The notes: generated from the letters alone by a model not told the origin. A stretch of DNA of 63,920 bases, filler included, from Collodictyon triciliatum (GCA_043381765.1; 21 parts of 21 records of this genome joined end to end with filler, not necessarily neighbours in it), one strand, 5' to 3'; shown: positions 53,985 to 61,953, counted from the first letter of the whole stretch. Translations and numbers: made by a program.

Positions 53985-56089
53985 ATGAATTTTAGGCAAC
54001 AGATATCCAGAAAGGCCTTACATGTGTTAGGTCAGTAGATTTTACAAAAAATGTGAATTTATTCTAATTTTTTTTATTTTAGGATTGATAATTTTCAATC
54101 AATTTCTTAATGCCAAGGGGCAAGATGTATCAATTTATACAATCAGTGGCCCCGGAAATCTATTGAGTTTGACCTTTACCCCTGACGGTTCTAACATTGT
54201 CTCTGGAAGTGATGATCGCAACGTCAGAATATGGAATCTTTCTGATGGAAATTTGATTCGCACATTATCTGGTCATTGGAATGAGGTTTACAGTGTCGCT
54301 GTATCTCCTGATGGTTACATGATTATATCTGGGAGTTACAGTTCTATAAGTCAATGGAATATCTCTGATGGAAGCTTGATTCGCTCATTGAATGGTCATT
54401 GGAACTGGATTTATAGTCTTGTCATTACCCCTGACGGTTCAAAATTCTTATCTGCAGGCGTAGATCGCACAATTAAAATTTGGAATCTTGCTGAAGGAGT
54501 GGTAATTCTAACATTGACCGGTCATACCCATTATGTTAACAGCCTTGCTGTTACTCGAGATGGATCGAAAGTGGTCTCTGGAAGTAGCGATAATACAATA
54601 AAAATTTGGAATATCACATACGGAACTTTAGTCAGCACTTTGACTGGTCATACTAACATAGTAAATAGTGTTGCTGTCACTCCTGATAGTTCGAAAGTGG
54701 TTTCTGGAAGTAGCGATAATACAATAAAAATTTGGAATATCACAGACGGAGCTTTAGTCAGCACTTTGACTGGTCATACTAACATAGTTAATAGTGTTGC
54801 CGTCACTCCCGATAACTCAAAGATAGTTTCTGGAAGCAGTGACACAACAGTTAAAGTTTGGAATCTTTTGGACGGAATTTTAGTCGGGAATCTGACCAGT
54901 CATTCTAATTGGGTTTACAGAGTTGCTGTTACTCCTGATGGCTCAAAAATCGTCTCTGGAGGCAGTGATACAACGATGAAAATATGGAATTTGGCACAAA
55001 GAGCTCTGGATCGCATCATAAATGGGCATACTAATCAGGTTTGCAGTGTTTTTGTTACTCCTGACGGGTCGAAAATTATTTCAGGAGGTGGAGATTCAAG
55101 CATCAGAGTCTGGAATATTACAGATGGAAATATGATTCGCATTATAAATGGTCACTCTAAAGAAGTTTTCAGTGTTGTAGTTACTATTGATGGCTCAAAA
55201 ATTATTTCAGGAGGTGGAGATTCAAGCATCAGAGTCTGGAATATTACAGATGGAAATATAATTCACACGATTTATGGTCATAATGATCGTGTTTCTAGTG
55301 TCTCTGTTACTCCTGACGGATCAAAAATTATTTCTGGTAGCTTTGATAGAACAATCAAAATATGGGGTATGTTGGATGGATTATTGTTAAGCACATTGAA
55401 GGGGCATTCCTATTATGTGTCAAGTGTTACTGTTACGCTAGATGGCTCAGTACTTATTTCTGGTAGTTACGATAATAGCATCAAAATATGGAACCTTTCT
55501 AGTGGAACGTTGATTCGCACATTGAATGAAAATGATGGCTACATTACTAATCTTGCCGTATCTCCTGATGGCTTAAGGCTTGTTTCTAGCACTTTCGATG
55601 CCTCCTTAAAAATATGGAATTTATCCGATGGAGCTTTAATTTGCACCTTGAATGGTCACACTGGTCCTATTTACAGCATTTCTATTAATACAGACGGCTC
55701 GAAAATTGTATCTGGGAGTCAGGATACCACAATTAAAATATGGGAAACTTCCCAGTATCTATCCAAACCCCAATCCCAATCCCAATCTCAATCACAATCA
55801 CAATCACAATCACAATCACAATCACAATCACAGTCTCAGTCTCAGTCTCAGTCTCAGTCCCAGTCCCACTCCCAGTCCCAGTCCCAGTCCCAGTCCCATT
55901 CTCAGTCCCAATCCCAATCCCAATCCCAATCCCAATCCCAATCCCAATCTCAGTCCCAATCCCAGTCTCAGTCTCAGTCTCAGTCCCAGTCTCAGTCCCA
56001 ATCCCAATCCCAATCCCAATCCCAATCCCAATCCCAATCCCAATCCCAATCCCAATCCCAATCCCAATCTCAGTCCCAATCTCAGTCCC
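53985..56089 (+). CDS. Signal peptide + 13 WD40 repeats + (SQ)n stalk; 3'-truncated
   Basis: Exon 1 53985-54030 [15 protein letters not shown], intron 54031-54082, then [30 protein letters not shown] repeats and a long Ser-Gln hexamer repeat. Confidence 0.9.
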
Positions 56090-56471
56090 NNNNNNNNNNN
56101 NNNNNNNNNNNNNNNNNNNNNNNNNNNNNNNNNTTAATTAATTAANNNNNNNNNNNNNNNNNNNNNNNNNNNNNNNNNNNNNNNNNNNNCAAGTTCTTAG
56201 AATCAGTCCAAAGAACCACCGTGGACCGCTCCAGGATCGTTCTCAGAAACCTCCCCTGAACCCTTCGTCCAGGGGATATTTAACGAGTCCGCCGACTCGT
56301 TAATAGGTTGAGAATCATAAAGCAAGCGTGTAGCAGAATAAAAGAACATCCCCTTACACGATGCCAGATTTCATTGTTTAGAAAAATTGAACAGACATCA
56401 AGGTTTGATAAATATTTTCTGTCCACTGATTTTTTTAACTGTTGAGTTATTTCGTAATTTAAAACTTTTTA

Positions 56472-57468
56472 TTATGTGTGCCTATAATGTGGGCATAATT
56501 CGTCTACTGATTGTGGCTTATTATTCACCCAAAGCATGAATGAATCAATAGATTTAATAAGAGGATCAATCATTATATCTTTGGTATACTTTGTAAATAT
56601 CCACTTGGAAGGTCCGTTGAAATGTACTATATAAGGTCTTGTTCCCGTCGGTATGTGTTCAAGATATCCAAGTTTATTGGCTACCCATGGGCAATGAGGG
56701 ACACAAGCTTCATCTATAAGGTACATATCCATGAAAAATTCTACGCAATGATCCAGAACAATACCGTATTTCCCAGAAAAGTACGCTTCGTGAAAAAATT
56801 GTTGATCGTCCTGGAAATATCTACGAGTGGCAATAATCTCTTGACATAGAGCTTCTAGCATATCCTTTAGCACCCAGGCATATGCTACGTAAGTTCCAGA
56901 ATTTATAAACCTAGGCCTGTAGGAAAAAGTACGTGTATTATGATTTTGGGAATACTAATCCTAAAAAACTATGACATAAAAGATGTATTAGATGATAATT
57001 TACCCTCTTTCGAAACATCCATTATGCGAATGGAATAGATCATAGGCTTTCTCACAGCTTCCATCAGGAAAAGCAGCTCCAGGTACTAGCTTACGAATGA
57101 TTGAATCTGGCATACAGTTATGCTCAACCGATATGACCATATTATATTTTTTGGACTTGAATAACTTGACTAAACCATTTACATCATTATTGAAGATAAC
57201 ATCATGACAGTCAGAAAAGATTATGACTGTTTCATTCGAATATTTTTTGACAGCATCTCTCATAATGAAGAGTTTGTCTCCATTTCTAACCCACTCTTTT
57301 CCAAATCCCAATACATGAACAAACGCATTAAAACTAATTGCACTTCTGATGAAATCGCAAAAATGGGCCTTACTGTTGGAACATACAGAAATTACTACAG
57401 CCCCAGCTTTTTCCAAATTGCTGTTATAATGAACAACAGCCTCTCCTAAGTCGTCAGCTATGTATTTA
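56472..57468 (-). CDS. PLOD (procollagen lysyl hydroxylase) N-terminal-type glycosyltransferase domain protein
   Basis: VLGFG.EW..GDK, IFSDCHDVIF, EHNC.PD, RFINSGTYV, DDQ, IVLD, HFNGPSK motifs; the upstream exon (~57522-57680) appears frameshifted. Confidence 0.8.
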
Positions 57469-58679
57469 CCTTTACAAAAATAAGAAACATTCTGTTAATT
57501 TTAAAACTATGTATCGAACCTAGTAATCGTGGTAGAACTCGTTCATTTTGATTGAATTTAAATACTTATAGTTGCAAGTAATAATACACAAGGTGAACCA
57601 ACTGACCAAATGGAAATTCCAAGAGTTTATTTTAAACAACTTGTTTGTTCTTCGGATAGCTTTCCCCGATATTTTCATTCAAAAAGTAGCTCGATTGTTT
57701 TTTAGTGAAACGGTGAACAACGCAGCTGCTTAGTATCTGCAAACAATGTTATTTCTAATGCATCACTTATTAGTACTTCTGAAATTTTGATAACGAAATG
57801 TGGCATTGATGCGCCCAAGCAAGTTTCCCTTAGATTGGTTGTTCGAATGGCTACATATACTTTTTCCTATGGTAACGCACCAATGAGTTATGATGTGTTT
57901 TTGATATTAACTTTTGCCCAGACTTTAACTGTGCTAATATACAGCTTTCAATAATACTGCATTTTTAATGGTTTTCACAGAAACATTTTTCAACATTTCG
58001 AAATTTCACAACTTTGAGTTCGGAAGAATAAATACTATGCTGACATCTCAATTCTAAACGGAATTCTCCACTATTAAATACATGCTAAATTTAGCATCCA
58101 CCCTACCTTTGAGCTAGCCAACCCGCCCTTTCTCTCCGATCCCTTGCCTTACCACCTCCTCCCACACCCTTTCACCTCAGAAAACAGAATATTTCTTTTT
58201 GTTCACTACGTTCTGGTGCGCTAGAAATAAGGAAACACTGGGTCAAACAACAGCGCATTTTTGAACTTACACAACATATTTTAGAAAACCTACCTTTGCC
58301 TGTCCGTCTATCCGTCCTTTGTCTTTGAACTCAATCCATATCGATGACAACCTAGCTAGGATTCGAAAATGAGTACGTTCTACATGTACTACCGGACAAG
58401 ACCTGTGATCATAGCGTCGGATCTGTTGAGCGGCCTGGTCCCTGCCCACCCCCGCAAAGAGGCGGCAAAGCCCTTCGCCCACTCACCCATTACCGCACCC
58501 ACAGGGCCGCCGCTATCGACTTCCTGCATCCATGTCCATACCATCCAGCTCTGTGGCATCAATTTTTTTATTCTATAAGTTTTAGCTGTTGAGCCCGTCT
58601 CAACAATCTTTCATTCAACCATCAGGCAAGTAGTTCCAAAGTAGGTGAGGATGTGTGGGAGATAGAAAAAAAACAGGGA

Positions 58680-59247
58680 TAAAAATAAGATAAAAGGGAA
58701 AAGAGAGGTCCTTGAGGCTTGATAAGAGACGCATGGATTTATTTTGGGGACGCGTGATAGTGTCCTGCGAGTATGAGAAAGAAAAAAGGGGCGGGTGATA
58801 TTGATTGGATGGAGGAAGGGGAATACTGCTTTGATGGCGCAAGCTGTCGAAAAGGATGGTGAAAAGAGAAGTGAGGTTCGTTTCATAAGCACTAGGTCGA
58901 GTGCAAAGACGACTTCTCTGCATGGTTGACTCACCTCCTACCAGACCGTATTCGGGTCTTTTCAGTGGGGTTATCGAAGGGACTTCTCCCTCTTGCTTGC
59001 AAAGGAAACCTATGGCTATAAGCTTCCACTCCCTGGTGTCTCTCTCAGCCAAGGTCGAGAATTTTGGCTTTGATACCGCAGGTTTTGCAAGTGGATTTGG
59101 TCAGCTATTCAGGACTCGCGTGTCAAGAGGTGTTAGTTGCCTGCAGTATCCCGGCTCAGGGAGTCTGTTAATGGGTTCGTTTGGGGTAGGGTATGGGTAT
59201 GATGGTCGGTATACCCATAGAGGAGGTCAGGACTGATGCGAGGTATC
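58680..59247 (+). mobile_element. Heavily decayed LINE APE-endonuclease region
   Basis: Relics in the expected order: EVLEA**ETH (QETH), KKGRVILI (KKRGVAILI), KDGEKR (DKEGR), frameshifted GDF; many stops. Confidence 0.4.
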
Positions 59248-59347
59248 NNNNNNNNNNNNNNNNNNNNNNNNNNNNNNNNNNNNNNNNNNNNTTAATTAAT
59301 TAANNNNNNNNNNNNNNNNNNNNNNNNNNNNNNNNNNNNNNNNNNNN

Positions 59348-61953
59348 TGAACCAGTAATATTGTTTGTTGTTCCAGCTTGACACGATATGCATGATGTCT
59401 GGCCTTCTTTATCGTTCCAGGTGCCCTGAGGACACTTATTGCAAGATAGATTTCCATATGAACCGGGGCTGGGGTTTAATGTCCCCTTCGGGCATGGAAT
59501 ACATGAAGAAGGGCTTTTAGGTACTTTCTCTTGCTGATAGAAACCTGAAGGACATACAATACACGATGACCTATCATGTGAGCTAAAACTTCCATTATAG
59601 CAATTTAAACATGAATTCACGCCAAATAATCCTGTTTCATTGTTGAATGTGCCTACAGGACATGAATCACATTTATCTTTTGATTGGGTACCGTAAGTTC
59701 CTTTTGGACATTTAATGCAAGAAGAGATATTAATTGATGCAAAATCAGGATTGAATGTTCCATCTCTGCAAGTCTTGCATTGAACTTGGCTAACTTCATC
59801 ATTGTAAGTTCCCGGTTTACATATATAGCAATTAATATTACTTGTTTTATTACTGTAAGTACCTGAGGGGCATAATAAGCAACTCGCTTGTCCGGTTAAT
59901 TGATTGTATGTTCCAGCTGCACATGAAATACACGCACTGGAGCTTGTCGAGCCGATGGATGGATTGTATGTTCCTGAGGGGCATAATAAGCAACTTGCTT
60001 GTCCAGTTAATTGATTGTATGTTCCAGCTGCGCATGAAATACAAGCGCTGGAGCTCGTAGAGCCGATGGATGGATTGTATGTTCCAGCTGCACATGAAAT
60101 ACACGCACTGGAGCTTGTTGAGCCGATGGATGGGTTGTATGTTCCTGAGGTGCATAATGAGCAAATCGCTTGTCCAGTTAATTGATTGTATGTTCCAGCT
60201 GCACATGAAATACAAGCGCTGGAGCTCGTAGAGCCGATTGATGGATTGTACGTTCCAGCTGCACATGAAATACACGCACTGGAGCTTGTTGAGCCTATGG
60301 ATGGATTGTATGTTCCAGCTGCGCATGATGTGCAATTTGATTGTCCAGTTAATTGGTTGTATGTTCCAGCTGCGCATGAAATACAAGCACTGGAGCTCGT
60401 AGAGCCGACGGATGGGTTGTATGTTCCAGCTGCGCATGAAATACAAGCGCTGGAGCTCGTAGAGCCGATTGATGGATTGTATGTTCCAGCGGCACATGAA
60501 ATACACGCACTGGAGCTTGTTGAGCCGATGGATGGATTGTATGTTCCAGCGGCACATGAAAGACAAGAACTGGAGCTTGTTGAGCCGATGGATGGGTTGT
60601 ATGTTCCTGAGGTGCATAATGAGCAACTCGCTTGTCCAGTTAATTGATTGTATGTTCCAGCTGCACATGAAAGACAAGCACTGGAGCTTGTTGAGCCTAT
60701 GGATGGGTTGTATGTTCCTGAGGGGCATAATGAGCAGCTTGCTCGTCCAGTTAATTGATTGTATGTTCCAGCTGCGCATGATATACAACTTGCTTGTCCA
60801 GATGATGGGTTGTAAGTTCCTGGGGGGCAAAATGAGCAGGTTCTAGATTCTACGTCATAAAAGAAACCTGCTTCACAAACGCCCCAAATTTTGATTGTGT
60901 TATCTTTGCTTCCTGAAACAATATTTGAACCATCAGCTGTAACAAAAACACTGCGCACATGGTCAGTATGGCCAGACAATGTTCGAATCAAACTTCCATT
61001 TGAGAGATTCCAGATTTTGATTGTGTTATCAGCACTTCCCGAAACAACTTTTGATCCATCTGGGGTGATTCTTAAACTCCAAATATGACCTGTATGTCCA
61101 TTTAATGTAAGAATATGAGCTCCATCAGATAGATTCCAGATTTTTATTGTTAAATCATGACTTCCCGATAGTAATTTTGAACCATCCGGGGTCATAGCAA
61201 CAACATTCACTGGGTTGCTATGACTAATTAAAGTTTGAATCAATCTTCCATCAGTTAGATTCCATATCTTGATCGTCGTGTCGACACTCCCTGAGAGGAT
61301 TTTCGATCCATCCGTATTAACTAGAACACTCCGTACAGGTTGTGAGTGGCCGTTTAACGTATGTATAAGGGCTCCATCAGATAGATTCAAAATTTTTATT
61401 ATTTTCTCATAACATCCGTAAATAATTTTTGATCCATCAGGAGTAATTGCGACGCTATTTACCTGATCAATATTGAGGCTCAACGTGCGAATAGAAGCAT
61501 CACCAGATATATTCCAAATTTTGATAGTCTTATCCCAGCTTCCAGAGACTATTTTTGAGTCATCAGGGGTAATTGCAACACCACGAACGACGTTAGTATG
61601 GCCAGATAATGTTCGAATCAAACTTCCATCTGAGAGACTCCAGATTTTGATTGTGTTATCAGCACTTCCCGAAACAATTTTTGAACCATCAGGAGTAACA
61701 ACAATACTATGTACCGAACCATCGTGGCCAGACAACGTTTGTATCAGATAGTTTTGTCCCCTAGCATGAAGTAAACGACAGCAAATAATTATTCCTATGG
61801 AAAAAAGTGATTAATTTTTCTCATAATATCGTCAAATATTTTTCCTTTATTTGATACAAGGAATGGTTTTGTCAAACATTTATATTAATTACTAAAATCT
61901 TGAAAATTTCATTTACCCAATAACAAGGTATTTACCACGCTCAGATATTTCAT
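59348..61953 (-). CDS. Signal peptide + 7 WD40 repeats + long Cys-rich (ephrin-receptor-like/GCC2-GCC3) repeat stalk; 3'-truncated
   Basis: Exon 1 61953-61917 MKYLSVVNTLLL, intron 61916-61795, then GIIICCRLLHARG-QN, 7 WD40 repeats and C..C..GTYN repeats of 17 and 20 aa. Confidence 0.92.
61831..61881 (-). mobile_element. Old micro-retroposon copy in the WD40 gene intron
   Basis: TTTCCTTTATTTGATACAAG between GTCAAATATTT and GTCAAACATTT. Confidence 0.5.

Follow-up and report, generated by a model that had tools for sequence, protein, structure and literature searches.

Two partial, paralogous genes, here called A and C, appear on balance to encode secretory-pathway proteins built as a propeller head on a stalk, with a likely function in extracellular-ligand recognition or adhesion; we hold this reading, drawn from sequence, with slightly better than even confidence. 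In gene C a leader, a WD40 propeller and an Ephrin_rec_like (PF07699) array lie in one frame, in the order found in many signal-peptide-bearing relatives with RCC1, Kelch or FG-GAP heads, and it is for this reason that a secretory route is considered the best reading. A WD40 domain, which is normally intracellular in eukaryotes, is unusual behind a secretion signal and next to a cysteine-rich stalk. The first-pass annotation had proposed a cell-surface recognition or adhesion family; the paralogy, the WD40 repeats and the head-then-stalk order support this in part, but an accompanying analogy to HET-E fails and the glycosylation sequons are weak evidence.

The window, that is, the whole stretch of 63,920 nucleotides that was analysed, is made up of 21 short contigs, with artificial N..TTAATTAATTAA..N spacers between them. 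The interval 53985-61953 crosses three unrelated ones, contig A (53031-56089), contig B (56190-59247) and contig C (59348-62404). Contig B carries a GT_PLOD glycosyltransferase. The WD40-leader family is found on two of the 21 contigs, which adjoin arbitrarily. The source is best explained as an AT-rich, microsatellite-rich, intron-bearing eukaryote in which genes A and C are paralogous and incomplete. Both genes reach a contig end and hence are partial, and their 3' extensions were not recovered by two scans of metagenomes.

By Pfam and by the modelled fold, the propellers are canonical WD40, the closed fold being seen for gene C only. The gene A array occupies 54121..55749 on the forward strand, with 13 blades at a 42-residue period (PF00400, E 4.7e-121; 390.6 bits in 13 stretches, cut-off 27); its 13 Trp-anchored units are 41 or 42 residues apart, and the DNA has tandem periods of 123/126 nt. 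The AlphaFold2 model of this gene has a mean pLDDT of 44.8 and does not resolve a 13-blade fold. The seven-bladed propeller of gene C (60878..61756, reverse strand; PF00400, E 2e-65; 214.9 bits in 6 stretches, cut-off 27) has seven Trp-anchored units spaced at 42 residues. Its AlphaFold2 model contains 28 strands, making seven blades, with the propeller blocks at a pLDDT of ~80-95, and Foldseek gave this model target TM-scores of 0.97 to 7big_A and 5yzv_B and of 0.88-0.94 to WDR5 chains. The very regular 42-aa repeats, 13 and 7 in number, described in the first-pass annotation are borne out by the unit spacing. As to the GH...WD signature, 16 of the 19 blades have His at position 12 of the unit and 18 have Trp at position 40. 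After this Trp comes Asn in 15/19 blades of the two genes and Asp in 0/19, and the WN variant is common in homologues (370 of 1491 blades). Cysteine makes up 0.3-0.4% of the propellers.

Beyond its array, gene A runs into an (ATCCCA)n microsatellite (55761..56089, forward strand; period 6, 54.8 copies), which reaches the contig end and reads in frame as (Ser-Gln)n. A (Ser-Gln)n stalk had been proposed here, and the run is indeed present in frame; however, it is a microsatellite at a contig end that leaves all three forward frames open, so that its openness is uninformative on coding, and the ‘stalk’ could be no more than this repeat. The visible part of gene A contains no cysteine domain of the PF07699 type. 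In gene C, the propeller is followed by an Ephrin_rec_like array (59348..60877, reverse strand; PF07699, E 2.9e-83), cut by the contig end, which scores 273.9 bits in 15 stretches (cut-off 23.1) and comprises at least 15 repeats. It holds 25 CxxCxxG-type motifs, its DNA has tandem periods of 60/111/171 nt, and it is 10.8% cysteine compared with 0.3% in the gene C propeller; this part of the AlphaFold2 model has a pLDDT below 50. The leader-adjacent propeller and the array share a single open frame of 836 codons (2.45 kb) and, at the junction (~60878), a complete last blade gives way to the first cysteine repeat within two residues. What had been noted as disulfide-type cysteine repeats after the second propeller is thus a PF07699 array. 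From the cysteine content and the relatives, we infer that these repeats are disulfide-bonded and extracellular.

Amongst the 120 best stalk homologues (448-1428 aa), PF00400 is listed in none, and 19 carry another beta-propeller family, the heads being RCC1 in 14, Kelch in two, and NHL, FG-GAP and lactonase in one each. The propeller was N-terminal to the PF07699 array in all eight relatives scanned. Several of the relatives that combine a propeller with PF07699 begin with a hydrophobic leader, some have a TM-like segment at the C-terminus, and a TM segment plus a kinase plus a TIR domain is present in one. Head-and-stalk proteins from protists and metagenomes (for example P0285, P0305, P0306, P0311, P0372, P0377, P0384 and P0291) share with gene C the order of leader, propeller and PF07699 array, and identity between their stalk repeats and its own is 28-62%. 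They differ in the head, which is RCC1, Kelch, FG-GAP, NHL or lactonase, whereas that of gene C is canonical WD40 (PF00400). A C-terminal TM segment or kinase is a feature of some of them; gene C is known only up to the contig end. The combination of WD40 with PF07699 was found in 0/498 retrieved proteins and 0/79 metagenome loci. Gene C probably adds a new head type, WD40, to this known head-and-stalk surface architecture, its sequence suggesting an extracellular location.

On the secretory reading, a cleavable signal peptide, the coding sequence of which is split by a conserved phase-1 intron, would take the protein into the endoplasmic reticulum. The first strand of the canonical WD40 fold, as modelled for gene C, would start a few residues past the predicted cleavage between A-x-G and Q. 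In gene C the propeller would then cap a long, disulfide-rich Ephrin_rec_like stalk on its N-terminal side, away from the membrane, in keeping with the observed domain order. The head would most likely bind an extracellular protein or peptide ligand, serving as a recognition or adhesion module.

Alternatively, the two proteins might be secreted structural parts of a filament, coat, test or matrix, in which a rod-like stalk, as in mastigonemes, carries the WD40 domain as a docking or assembly head, with no anchor or signalling part. The sole solved sequence relative of the gene C stalk is indeed the mastigoneme filament protein Mst1 (8tx1_A, E 3e-15). We take Mst1 of Chlamydomonas (8tx1 and related entries), partly from the entry names, to be an extracellular rod rich in Ephrin_rec_like repeats; the likeness is confined to the cysteine repeats, the query having been the gene C stalk alone. 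The stalk repeats are also long and very regular, neither gene shows a TM segment or kinase in its visible part, and gene A perhaps continues into the low-complexity Ser/Gln run. However, both genes are truncated at contig ends, so the missing anchor carries no weight, and the TM-like ends of several propeller and PF07699 relatives, one with its kinase plus TIR, argue the other way. A purely structural role is considered unlikely.

The 5' ends of the genes were modelled as follows. Gene A exon 1 (53985..54030, forward strand, 46 nt; predicted) starts with the ATG at 53985 and encodes a basic n-region and the first half of the leader; it was chosen as the nearest upstream ATG with an open frame to a GT donor in the needed phase. 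The intron (54031..54082, 52 nt, GT..AG), in which a T-rich tract precedes the AG, interrupts a GGA Gly codon in phase 1. Exon 2 extends from 54083 to the contig end, and the second half of the leader (54083..54120) ends in A-K-G followed by Q, the predicted cleavage region. In gene C, on the reverse strand, exon 1 (61917..61953, 37 nt; predicted) starts with the ATG at 61953 and again encodes the first half of the leader. It is followed by an intron (61795..61916, 122 nt, GT..AG) that likewise splits a GGA Gly codon in phase 1, and by exon 2, which spans 61794 to 59348, where the contig ends, and in which the second half of the leader (61757..61794) ends in A-R-G and then Q. The intron position within the leader is identical in the two genes, and the two align as DNA across the splice acceptor and the opening of exon 2, which encodes leader. 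The short first exon, the phase-1 intron in a Gly codon and the A-[KR]-G leader end before Q, which the first-pass annotation had described as shared, are thus present in the predicted models of both paralogs. In neither gene does the exon-2 frame contain an in-frame Met ahead of the WD40 array, so an upstream exon is needed; in gene A the frame is also shut by a stop just upstream, and splicing is therefore required. The spliced models of both genes give a Met, basic residues and a hydrophobic stretch; each predicted leader begins basic, has a hydrophobic core and carries A-x-G ahead of Q. At its most hydrophobic 12-residue window the gene C leader scores 2.72, and that of gene A 1.63, which is only moderate.

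It could be argued that neither protein is secreted: the 5' models would be wrong, or the start would not be a signal peptide, and the proteins would be intracellular WD40 scaffolds with ordinary sequons and variable positions. The 5' models are predicted from sequence; the modelled first exons are the nearest ATG-plus-GT pairs that are open and in phase in both genes, more distant ones are possible on paper, and the gene A leader is weak. The blades lack disulfides, and variability of the top face with a pN/pS below 1 is typical of any WD40 protein. The sequons, too, are compatible with an intracellular protein. It had been claimed that most blades carry a sequon directly after the Trp, and W-N-x-S/T does occur in 8/13 blades of gene A and 5/7 of gene C (13/20 together, with one of the five in gene C following Leu rather than Trp), compared with 66/1491 blades in the 120 homologues. 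However, the density of N-x-S/T does not exceed what composition-preserving shuffles give (observed versus mean, 9 versus 9.5, 6 versus 4.2 and 7 versus 10.2), and W-N-x-S/T also occurs in leaderless WD40-channel proteins of ciliate type (10/14 blades in P0066 and 6/10 in P0055). Because the density matches composition and leaderless proteins share the motif, the sequons are weak evidence. Against an intracellular location, all the in-phase alternatives for the first exon are likewise short and keep the hydrophobic stretch N-terminal, there is no upstream ORF for another domain on contig A or contig C, both the leader and the intron position are kept between the paralogues, and 25 in-frame CxxCxxG-type motifs are very hard to square with a cytosolic protein. 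We therefore regard an intracellular location as quite unlikely.

Several observations were counted against the secretory reading. The gene A leader is moderate and this gene has no visible cysteine domain; the propellers are almost without cysteine, and N-x-S/T is no denser than in shuffles. No second protein or locus with WD40 and PF07699 was found amongst those searched, the assembly is highly fragmented, and the junction in gene C is bridged by no independent contig.

This last point also bears on whether the WD40 and cysteine parts of contig C have been misassembled, or whether both loci are pseudogenised arrays. The assembly breaks at microsatellites, 25 of the 42 contig ends in the whole window lying inside such repeats. 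Both arrays are tandem repeats and hence prone to collapse, and a related metagenome contig joins 60096 to 60619, which suggests variation in repeat copy number within the stalk array. On the other hand, the open frame spans 836 codons in gene C, passing through the junction, and 704 codons in gene A, the last blade is whole with the first cysteine repeat within two residues of it, and a pN/pS of 0.33 at scaffold positions indicates purifying selection. Artefact or decay is thus very improbable.

A hydrophobic leader stands directly before the WD40 repeats in 24 of 120 homologues, mostly metagenomic and bacterial-looking. Exported WD40 proteins thus appear common amongst bacteria, and it follows that the WD40 fold can work outside the cytosol. 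The statement in the first-pass annotation that WD40 proteins are overwhelmingly cytosolic or nuclear holds for eukaryotes but not for these apparently bacterial exported forms. In a number of them (P0058, P0062, P0084, P0120-P0122 and, from Spirochaetia, P0068), only a few residues separate the leader from the first strand and GH, and the blades are 38-47% identical to those described here. These proteins are without a PF07699 stalk; genes A and C need spliceosomal introns and match the composition of the window. We shall assume that the exported relatives are prokaryotic and intronless, although only P0068 bears an organism name. With a GC3 of 0.28-0.32, genes A and C lie at the low end of the range for the window's other ORFs (0.31-0.45) and are therefore not contaminant-like. 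Although, ranked by identity, the top WD40 matches come from cyanobacteria or metagenomes (51-54%) and many apparently bacterial homologues share the leader-then-first-blade arrangement, it is extremely improbable that the genes are bacterial contaminants or that an exported bacterial WD40 gene was transferred very recently, given the GT..AG introns needed in both genes, their GC3, flanking microsatellites that are the same as on other contigs, and stalk relatives that include named eukaryotes. An ancient transfer of a bacterial WD40 gene is conceivable and would leave the secreted head-and-stalk reading unchanged.

The most variable positions of the WD40 unit are 4, 7, 10, 13-15, 17, 20, 33 and 35; those that follow GH and those near the Asp of SGSxD are amongst them, the first-pass annotation having pointed to the residues after GH and after SGS. 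The top, ligand-binding face of WD40 propellers is formed by the D-A and B-C loops. Placed by the strand order of the model and textbook WD40 topology, the variable residues would fall in these loops, and the recurrent N-x-S/T on the other face, in the turn from strand C to strand D. Blade DNA identity has a median of 62% and a maximum of 83%. The per-position check of selection suggested by the first-pass annotation gave, with pS near saturation, a pN/pS of 0.76 at top-face positions 13-15, 17, 33 and 35 and 0.33 elsewhere; the former is not above 1, and there is no sign of positive selection.

The fungal NACHT-WD40 allorecognition receptors of the HET-E/NWD type (for example P0397 and P0491) also have consensus-like 42-residue repeats, whose variability centres on the residues following GH and near the Asp of SGSxD. 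They are cytosolic, however, and genes A and C have neither HET nor NACHT, their arrays starting right after the leader; amongst the best 25 families listed per protein there was no NACHT or NB-ARC Pfam match. Likeness to HET-E, which had been suggested, fails on the lack of NACHT, on blades that are far from near-identical and on the top-face pN/pS. Membership of the HET-E/NWD STAND group was rejected since no NACHT/NB-ARC is listed, the blades are diverged and pN/pS does not exceed 1.

A stronger form of the secretory reading would be that a eukaryote lineage has put WD40 outside the cell as a glycosylated, blade-variable ligand head on Ephrin_rec_like stalks, in an expanded receptor or adhesin family. 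This is a doubtful proposition. If true, that family would parallel, outside the cell, the NACHT-WD40 recognition receptors of the cytosol, and its origin may lie in an exported bacterial WD40 gene.

The plant receptor kinase CRINKLY4 provides a further comparison. Its ectodomain has a signal peptide and a seven-bladed propeller, proposed as a ligand-binding platform, followed by a cysteine-rich TNFR-like domain; Asn150 of PpCR4 is N-glycosylated, and the propeller, nearest to BLIP-II/UVR8, has disulfide-stapled blades and a pore-filling N-terminus (bioRxiv 10.1101/2020.08.10.245050). On that account, CRINKLY4 is alike in having a propeller and then a cysteine-rich part behind a signal peptide, which here is predicted. 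CRINKLY4 further has a TM helix and a cytoplasmic kinase; genes A and C are visible only as far as their contig ends. The propellers described here are canonical WD40 with little cysteine, not BLIP-II/UVR8-like with blade disulfides, and a CRINKLY4-type propeller was rejected on Pfam, fold and the 0.3-0.4% cysteine. The cysteine-rich domain of CRINKLY4 as described there spans ~90 residues, compared with an array of 25 motifs in gene C.

The reading we prefer for the two partial genes, one on contig A (53031-56089, + strand) and its paralogue on contig C (59348-62404, − strand), is that they encode secretory proteins of head-and-stalk build, the head being a canonical WD40 propeller; we hold this reading with slightly better than even confidence. 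What the first-pass annotation observed is present in the sequence, and its secretory reading is plausible. The 42-residue WD40 repeats that it described, 13 in one gene and seven in the other, are borne out: Trp-anchored units occur in exactly these numbers in genes A and C, respectively, with a spacing of 42 residues and one of 41, and Pfam WD40 matches 13 stretches in gene A (E 4.7e-121) and six in gene C (E 2e-65). Modelling gives the gene C protein (P0002) a WD40 fold. An AlphaFold2 single-sequence model of its first 420 residues has 28 strands, with pLDDT ~80-95 in the propeller blocks, and it matches seven-bladed WD40 propellers, both designed and natural, at target TM-scores of 0.97 (7big_A and 5yzv_B) and 0.88-0.94 (WDR5 chains); the ESM Atlas returned generic WD40 clusters only, at ≤0.86. 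The 13-blade AlphaFold2 model of gene A has a mean pLDDT of 44.8 and is therefore uninformative on whether the blades are arranged as 6+7 or 7+6.

In gene C the propeller head is followed by a stalk of Ephrin_rec_like (PF07699) repeats, which number 15 stretches (E 2.9e-83) and contain 25 CxxCxxG-type motifs; these are the cysteine repeats that the earlier description took to be of the disulfide type. Cysteine makes up 10.8% of the stalk versus 0.3% of the propeller. The stalk DNA is tandemly repeated with periods of 60, 111 and 171 nt and ends at the contig end, and in the AlphaFold2 model the stalk has pLDDT <50. Within the array, a 141-nt freshwater-metagenome contig matches both sides of 60096-60619 at ~94-95% and skips 522 bases, which suggests either that a related sequence differs in its number of repeats or that the placement in the array is ambiguous. 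Gene A had been given a (Ser-Gln)n stalk. An in-frame run of this kind is present where the frame enters an (ATCCCA)n microsatellite (55761-56089, up to the contig end), but the stalk is no more than putative, because none of the three forward frames is closed by a stop in this run and most contigs end in microsatellites.

Eukaryotic WD40 propellers are regarded as cytosolic or nuclear scaffolds, and the usual extracellular propellers are of other types (YWTD, Kelch, FG-GAP, Sema and RCC1-like). A search with the stalk retrieved 1009 proteins of 448-1428 residues; the WD40 family PF00400 is found in none of the best 120 of these, and 19 of the same 120 carry another propeller (14 RCC1, two Kelch, one NHL, one FG-GAP and one lactonase). 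A scan of eight propeller-plus-PF07699 relatives placed the propeller on the N-terminal side of the array in every one; several such relatives have a hydrophobic leader and some a C-terminal TM-like segment. Other propellers thus occur on PF07699 stalks behind leaders, and the head-and-stalk architecture is recurrent. A secreted structural or filament protein, which we consider unlikely, would have its parallel in the mastigoneme protein Mst1 (8tx1_A, E 3e-15), the only sequence relative of the stalk among solved structures. On the other side stands the metagenome protein P0291, in which NHL repeats, Ephrin_rec_like repeats and a TM-like segment are followed by a kinase and a TIR domain; this architecture is receptor-like and could show a possible full-length form of a gene C relative. 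The products of genes A and C may themselves be anchored in some way. A characterised analogue of the head-and-stalk layout is the plant receptor kinase CRINKLY4, which combines a propeller with a TNFR-like cysteine-rich domain, as described in a preprint (bioRxiv 10.1101/2020.08.10.245050).

The general layout is recurrent, but its WD40-headed form was not found among top-ranked matches. When four protein searches were pooled, none of 498 top-ranked matches covered both the WD40 and the PF07699 parts. A whole-library HMMER search with P0002 residues 270-816 gave WD40 in none of its best 150 matches, which are giant cysteine-repeat proteins, and the top-scoring matches of word-index searches with the whole protein, at both the 'near' and the 'longer' lengths, did not extend over both parts. 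One candidate, the 3827-residue protein P0459, was set aside: its three WD-like motifs are loose chance occurrences, and phmmer finds no WD match in it. With the junction and first repeats as query, a metagenome scan found WD40 beside the repeats in none of 79 loci (590 kb); the closest loci inspected (L001, L009 and L035) hold GC-rich cysteine-repeat genes of other organisms. A metagenome scan with the C-terminal 185 residues gave 166 pattern-matched stretches, none of which was confirmed. These absences apply to top-scoring matches and are no proof of absence elsewhere. The literature searches gave no relevant account of WD40 combined with Ephrin_rec_like/GCC2_GCC3, or of secreted WD40; CRINKLY4 alone was returned for an extracellular WD40 protein with a signal peptide, and no title on Reticulomyxa filosa WD40 was relevant. 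If the preferred reading is true, the known set of eukaryotic ectodomains would grow by a canonical WD40 head carried on a disulfide-rich stalk, and with it would come a consensus-like, readily engineered binding module that functions in the secretory pathway. The arrangement is also a clean example of head swapping, with RCC1, Kelch, NHL, FG-GAP and here WD40 on a common Ephrin_rec_like array.

The leader depends on predicted gene models. In both genes an upstream exon is required because no in-frame Met precedes the repeats; from stop to contig end, the exon-2 frames run for 704 codons (gene A) and 836 codons (gene C). In gene A (+), the predicted exon 1 starts with ATG at 53985 and is 46 nt long, the GT..AG intron occupies 54031-54082 (52 nt) and exon 2 starts at 54083; in gene C (−), the predicted exon 1 starts with ATG at 61953 and is 37 nt long, the GT..AG intron occupies 61916-61795 (122 nt) and exon 2 starts at 61794. 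The short first exon and the phase-1 intron within a Gly codon (GGA), both noted in the first pass, are thus recovered in predicted models on two separate contigs. Each intron interrupts a hydrophobic stretch midway, and this stretch ends in A-[KR]-G and is followed by Q. Over the acceptor and the initial ~45 coding bases of exon 2, the two genes align clearly; the leader and its intron structure are conserved between them.

That the proteins are not secreted, their 5' ends having been modelled wrongly, is in our estimate marginally less probable than the structural or filament reading. This alternative would draw on the listing of sequencing runs for this DNA, which comprises four DNA runs with small shares and zero RNA runs. 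When all ATG-to-GT combinations were enumerated, however, the proposed first exons were the nearest in-phase open choice, and the few alternatives are likewise short and keep the hydrophobic segment N-terminal. An intronless reading in the ciliate code, judged by eye, would give gene A a start and was rejected, since gene C then meets an in-frame TGA with no later Met. We regard the predicted models as reasonable, and the leader as a putative signal peptide that would place the products outside the cell.

An assembly chimera or decaying copy is improbable. None of the short DNA-run pieces on contig C spans the intron or the WD40-stalk junction, and the longest carry differences (150 nt with 13; 121 nt with five and two gaps; 98 nt with four); the cysteine repeats nevertheless begin at most two residues past the last blade, in one shared frame. 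Bacterial contamination can be all but dismissed: exported WD40 proteins do appear ordinary in bacteria, given that 24 of 120 WD40 homologues (one from Spirochaetia, most of them metagenome proteins) have a hydrophobic leader directly N-terminal of the first blade, but genes A and C match the rest of the window in base composition (GC3 0.28-0.32 versus 0.31-0.45 for other ORFs).

To return to the preferred secretory reading, its WD40 part has thousands of WD40-rich matches, with identity up to 54% and each covering about one-third of the query, among them cyanobacterial, fungal NACHT-WD40, Stentor and Reticulomyxa proteins. The blades are regular in length without being nearly identical: at DNA level, two blades of one gene share a median identity of 0.62 and blades of different genes one of 0.61, with 0.83 and 0.81 for the most similar pairs. 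The proposed likeness to homogeneous-repeat HET-E/NACHT receptors of fungi fails on this identity and on pN/pS, and no testable feature supports it. The first pass had also seen variable residues on a conserved scaffold, and the variable columns are real (4, 7, 10, 13-15, 17, 20, 33 and 35 of the unit). The gene C model puts positions 13-15 into the D-A loop and positions 33 and 35 into the B-C turn, which in textbook WD40 topology form the top face; this face may bind a ligand. In blade comparisons, pN/pS is 0.76 at the top-face variable positions versus 0.33 in the scaffold, which indicates relaxed constraint and not demonstrated positive selection. A test for diversifying selection gave no sign of it: with all blade pairs pooled, pN/pS is <1 for every site class, and the single value of 1.41, at strand-D positions, comes from four close pairs, which are too few. 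A large and variable family would suggest that a little-studied lineage of protists uses such proteins for recognition at its surface; of the 21 contigs in the window, A and C alone carry this family.

The sequon after the Trp has a mixed standing. W-N-x-S/T occurs in eight of 13 blades in gene A and five of seven in gene C, as against 66 of 1491 blades in 120 homologues, although, the blades being copies of each other, these 13 of 20 do not amount to 13 independent events. Overall, N-x-S/T is no more abundant than in composition-preserving shuffles (9 versus 9.5, 6 versus 4.2 and, for the stalk, 7 versus 10.2), and leaderless ciliate-type WD40-channel proteins share the habit (P0066 in 10 of 14 blades, P0055 in six of 10). 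In the gene C model the site sits where strand C ends and the C-D turn begins, on the face opposite the variable loops. The products may be glycosylated; the sequons are compatible with this and are weak evidence for it. P0055, P0066 and P0113 (from Stentor and metagenomes) have 10-14 N-terminal WD40 blades, no leader and a multi-TM C-terminal part that by eye is ion-channel-like.

The window (1-63920) consists of 21 contigs of ~3.06 kb, ordered by falling size and separated by 20 artificial spacers (N around TTAATTAATTAA), and contig order carries no information. Because of this joining, the interval 53985-61953 spans three unrelated contigs (A, B and C). The DNA is AT-rich (contig GC 0.31-0.45), and microsatellites (tandem repeats of period ≤15) lie at 25 of 42 contig ends; the assembly therefore breaks at them. 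Eukaryotic genes with introns are present on other contigs, those for a Rab5-like GTPase and polyubiquitin among them. On contig B (56190-59247), two ORF pieces at 56472-57494 (−) have matches to PF25342, a glycosyltransferase domain of PLOD type (E 1.1e-16 and 4.9e-08), and are probably two exons of one gene, which is unrelated to the WD40 genes despite its position between them. Open frames of 721 codons (28407-30572, −) and 503 codons (46994-48505, +) have many hydrophobic stretches and match no Pfam family at E ≤0.01. A polyubiquitin fragment lies at a contig start (43552-43902, +), and the sole Rfam match in the window is a tRNA (45513-45584, −). The Rab5-like GTPase gene (31133-32420, +) has several introns; a putative one at 31502-31862, past the WDTAGQE codons, has by eye the non-canonical boundary AT..AC, and the others are GT..AG and ~150-160 nt long.
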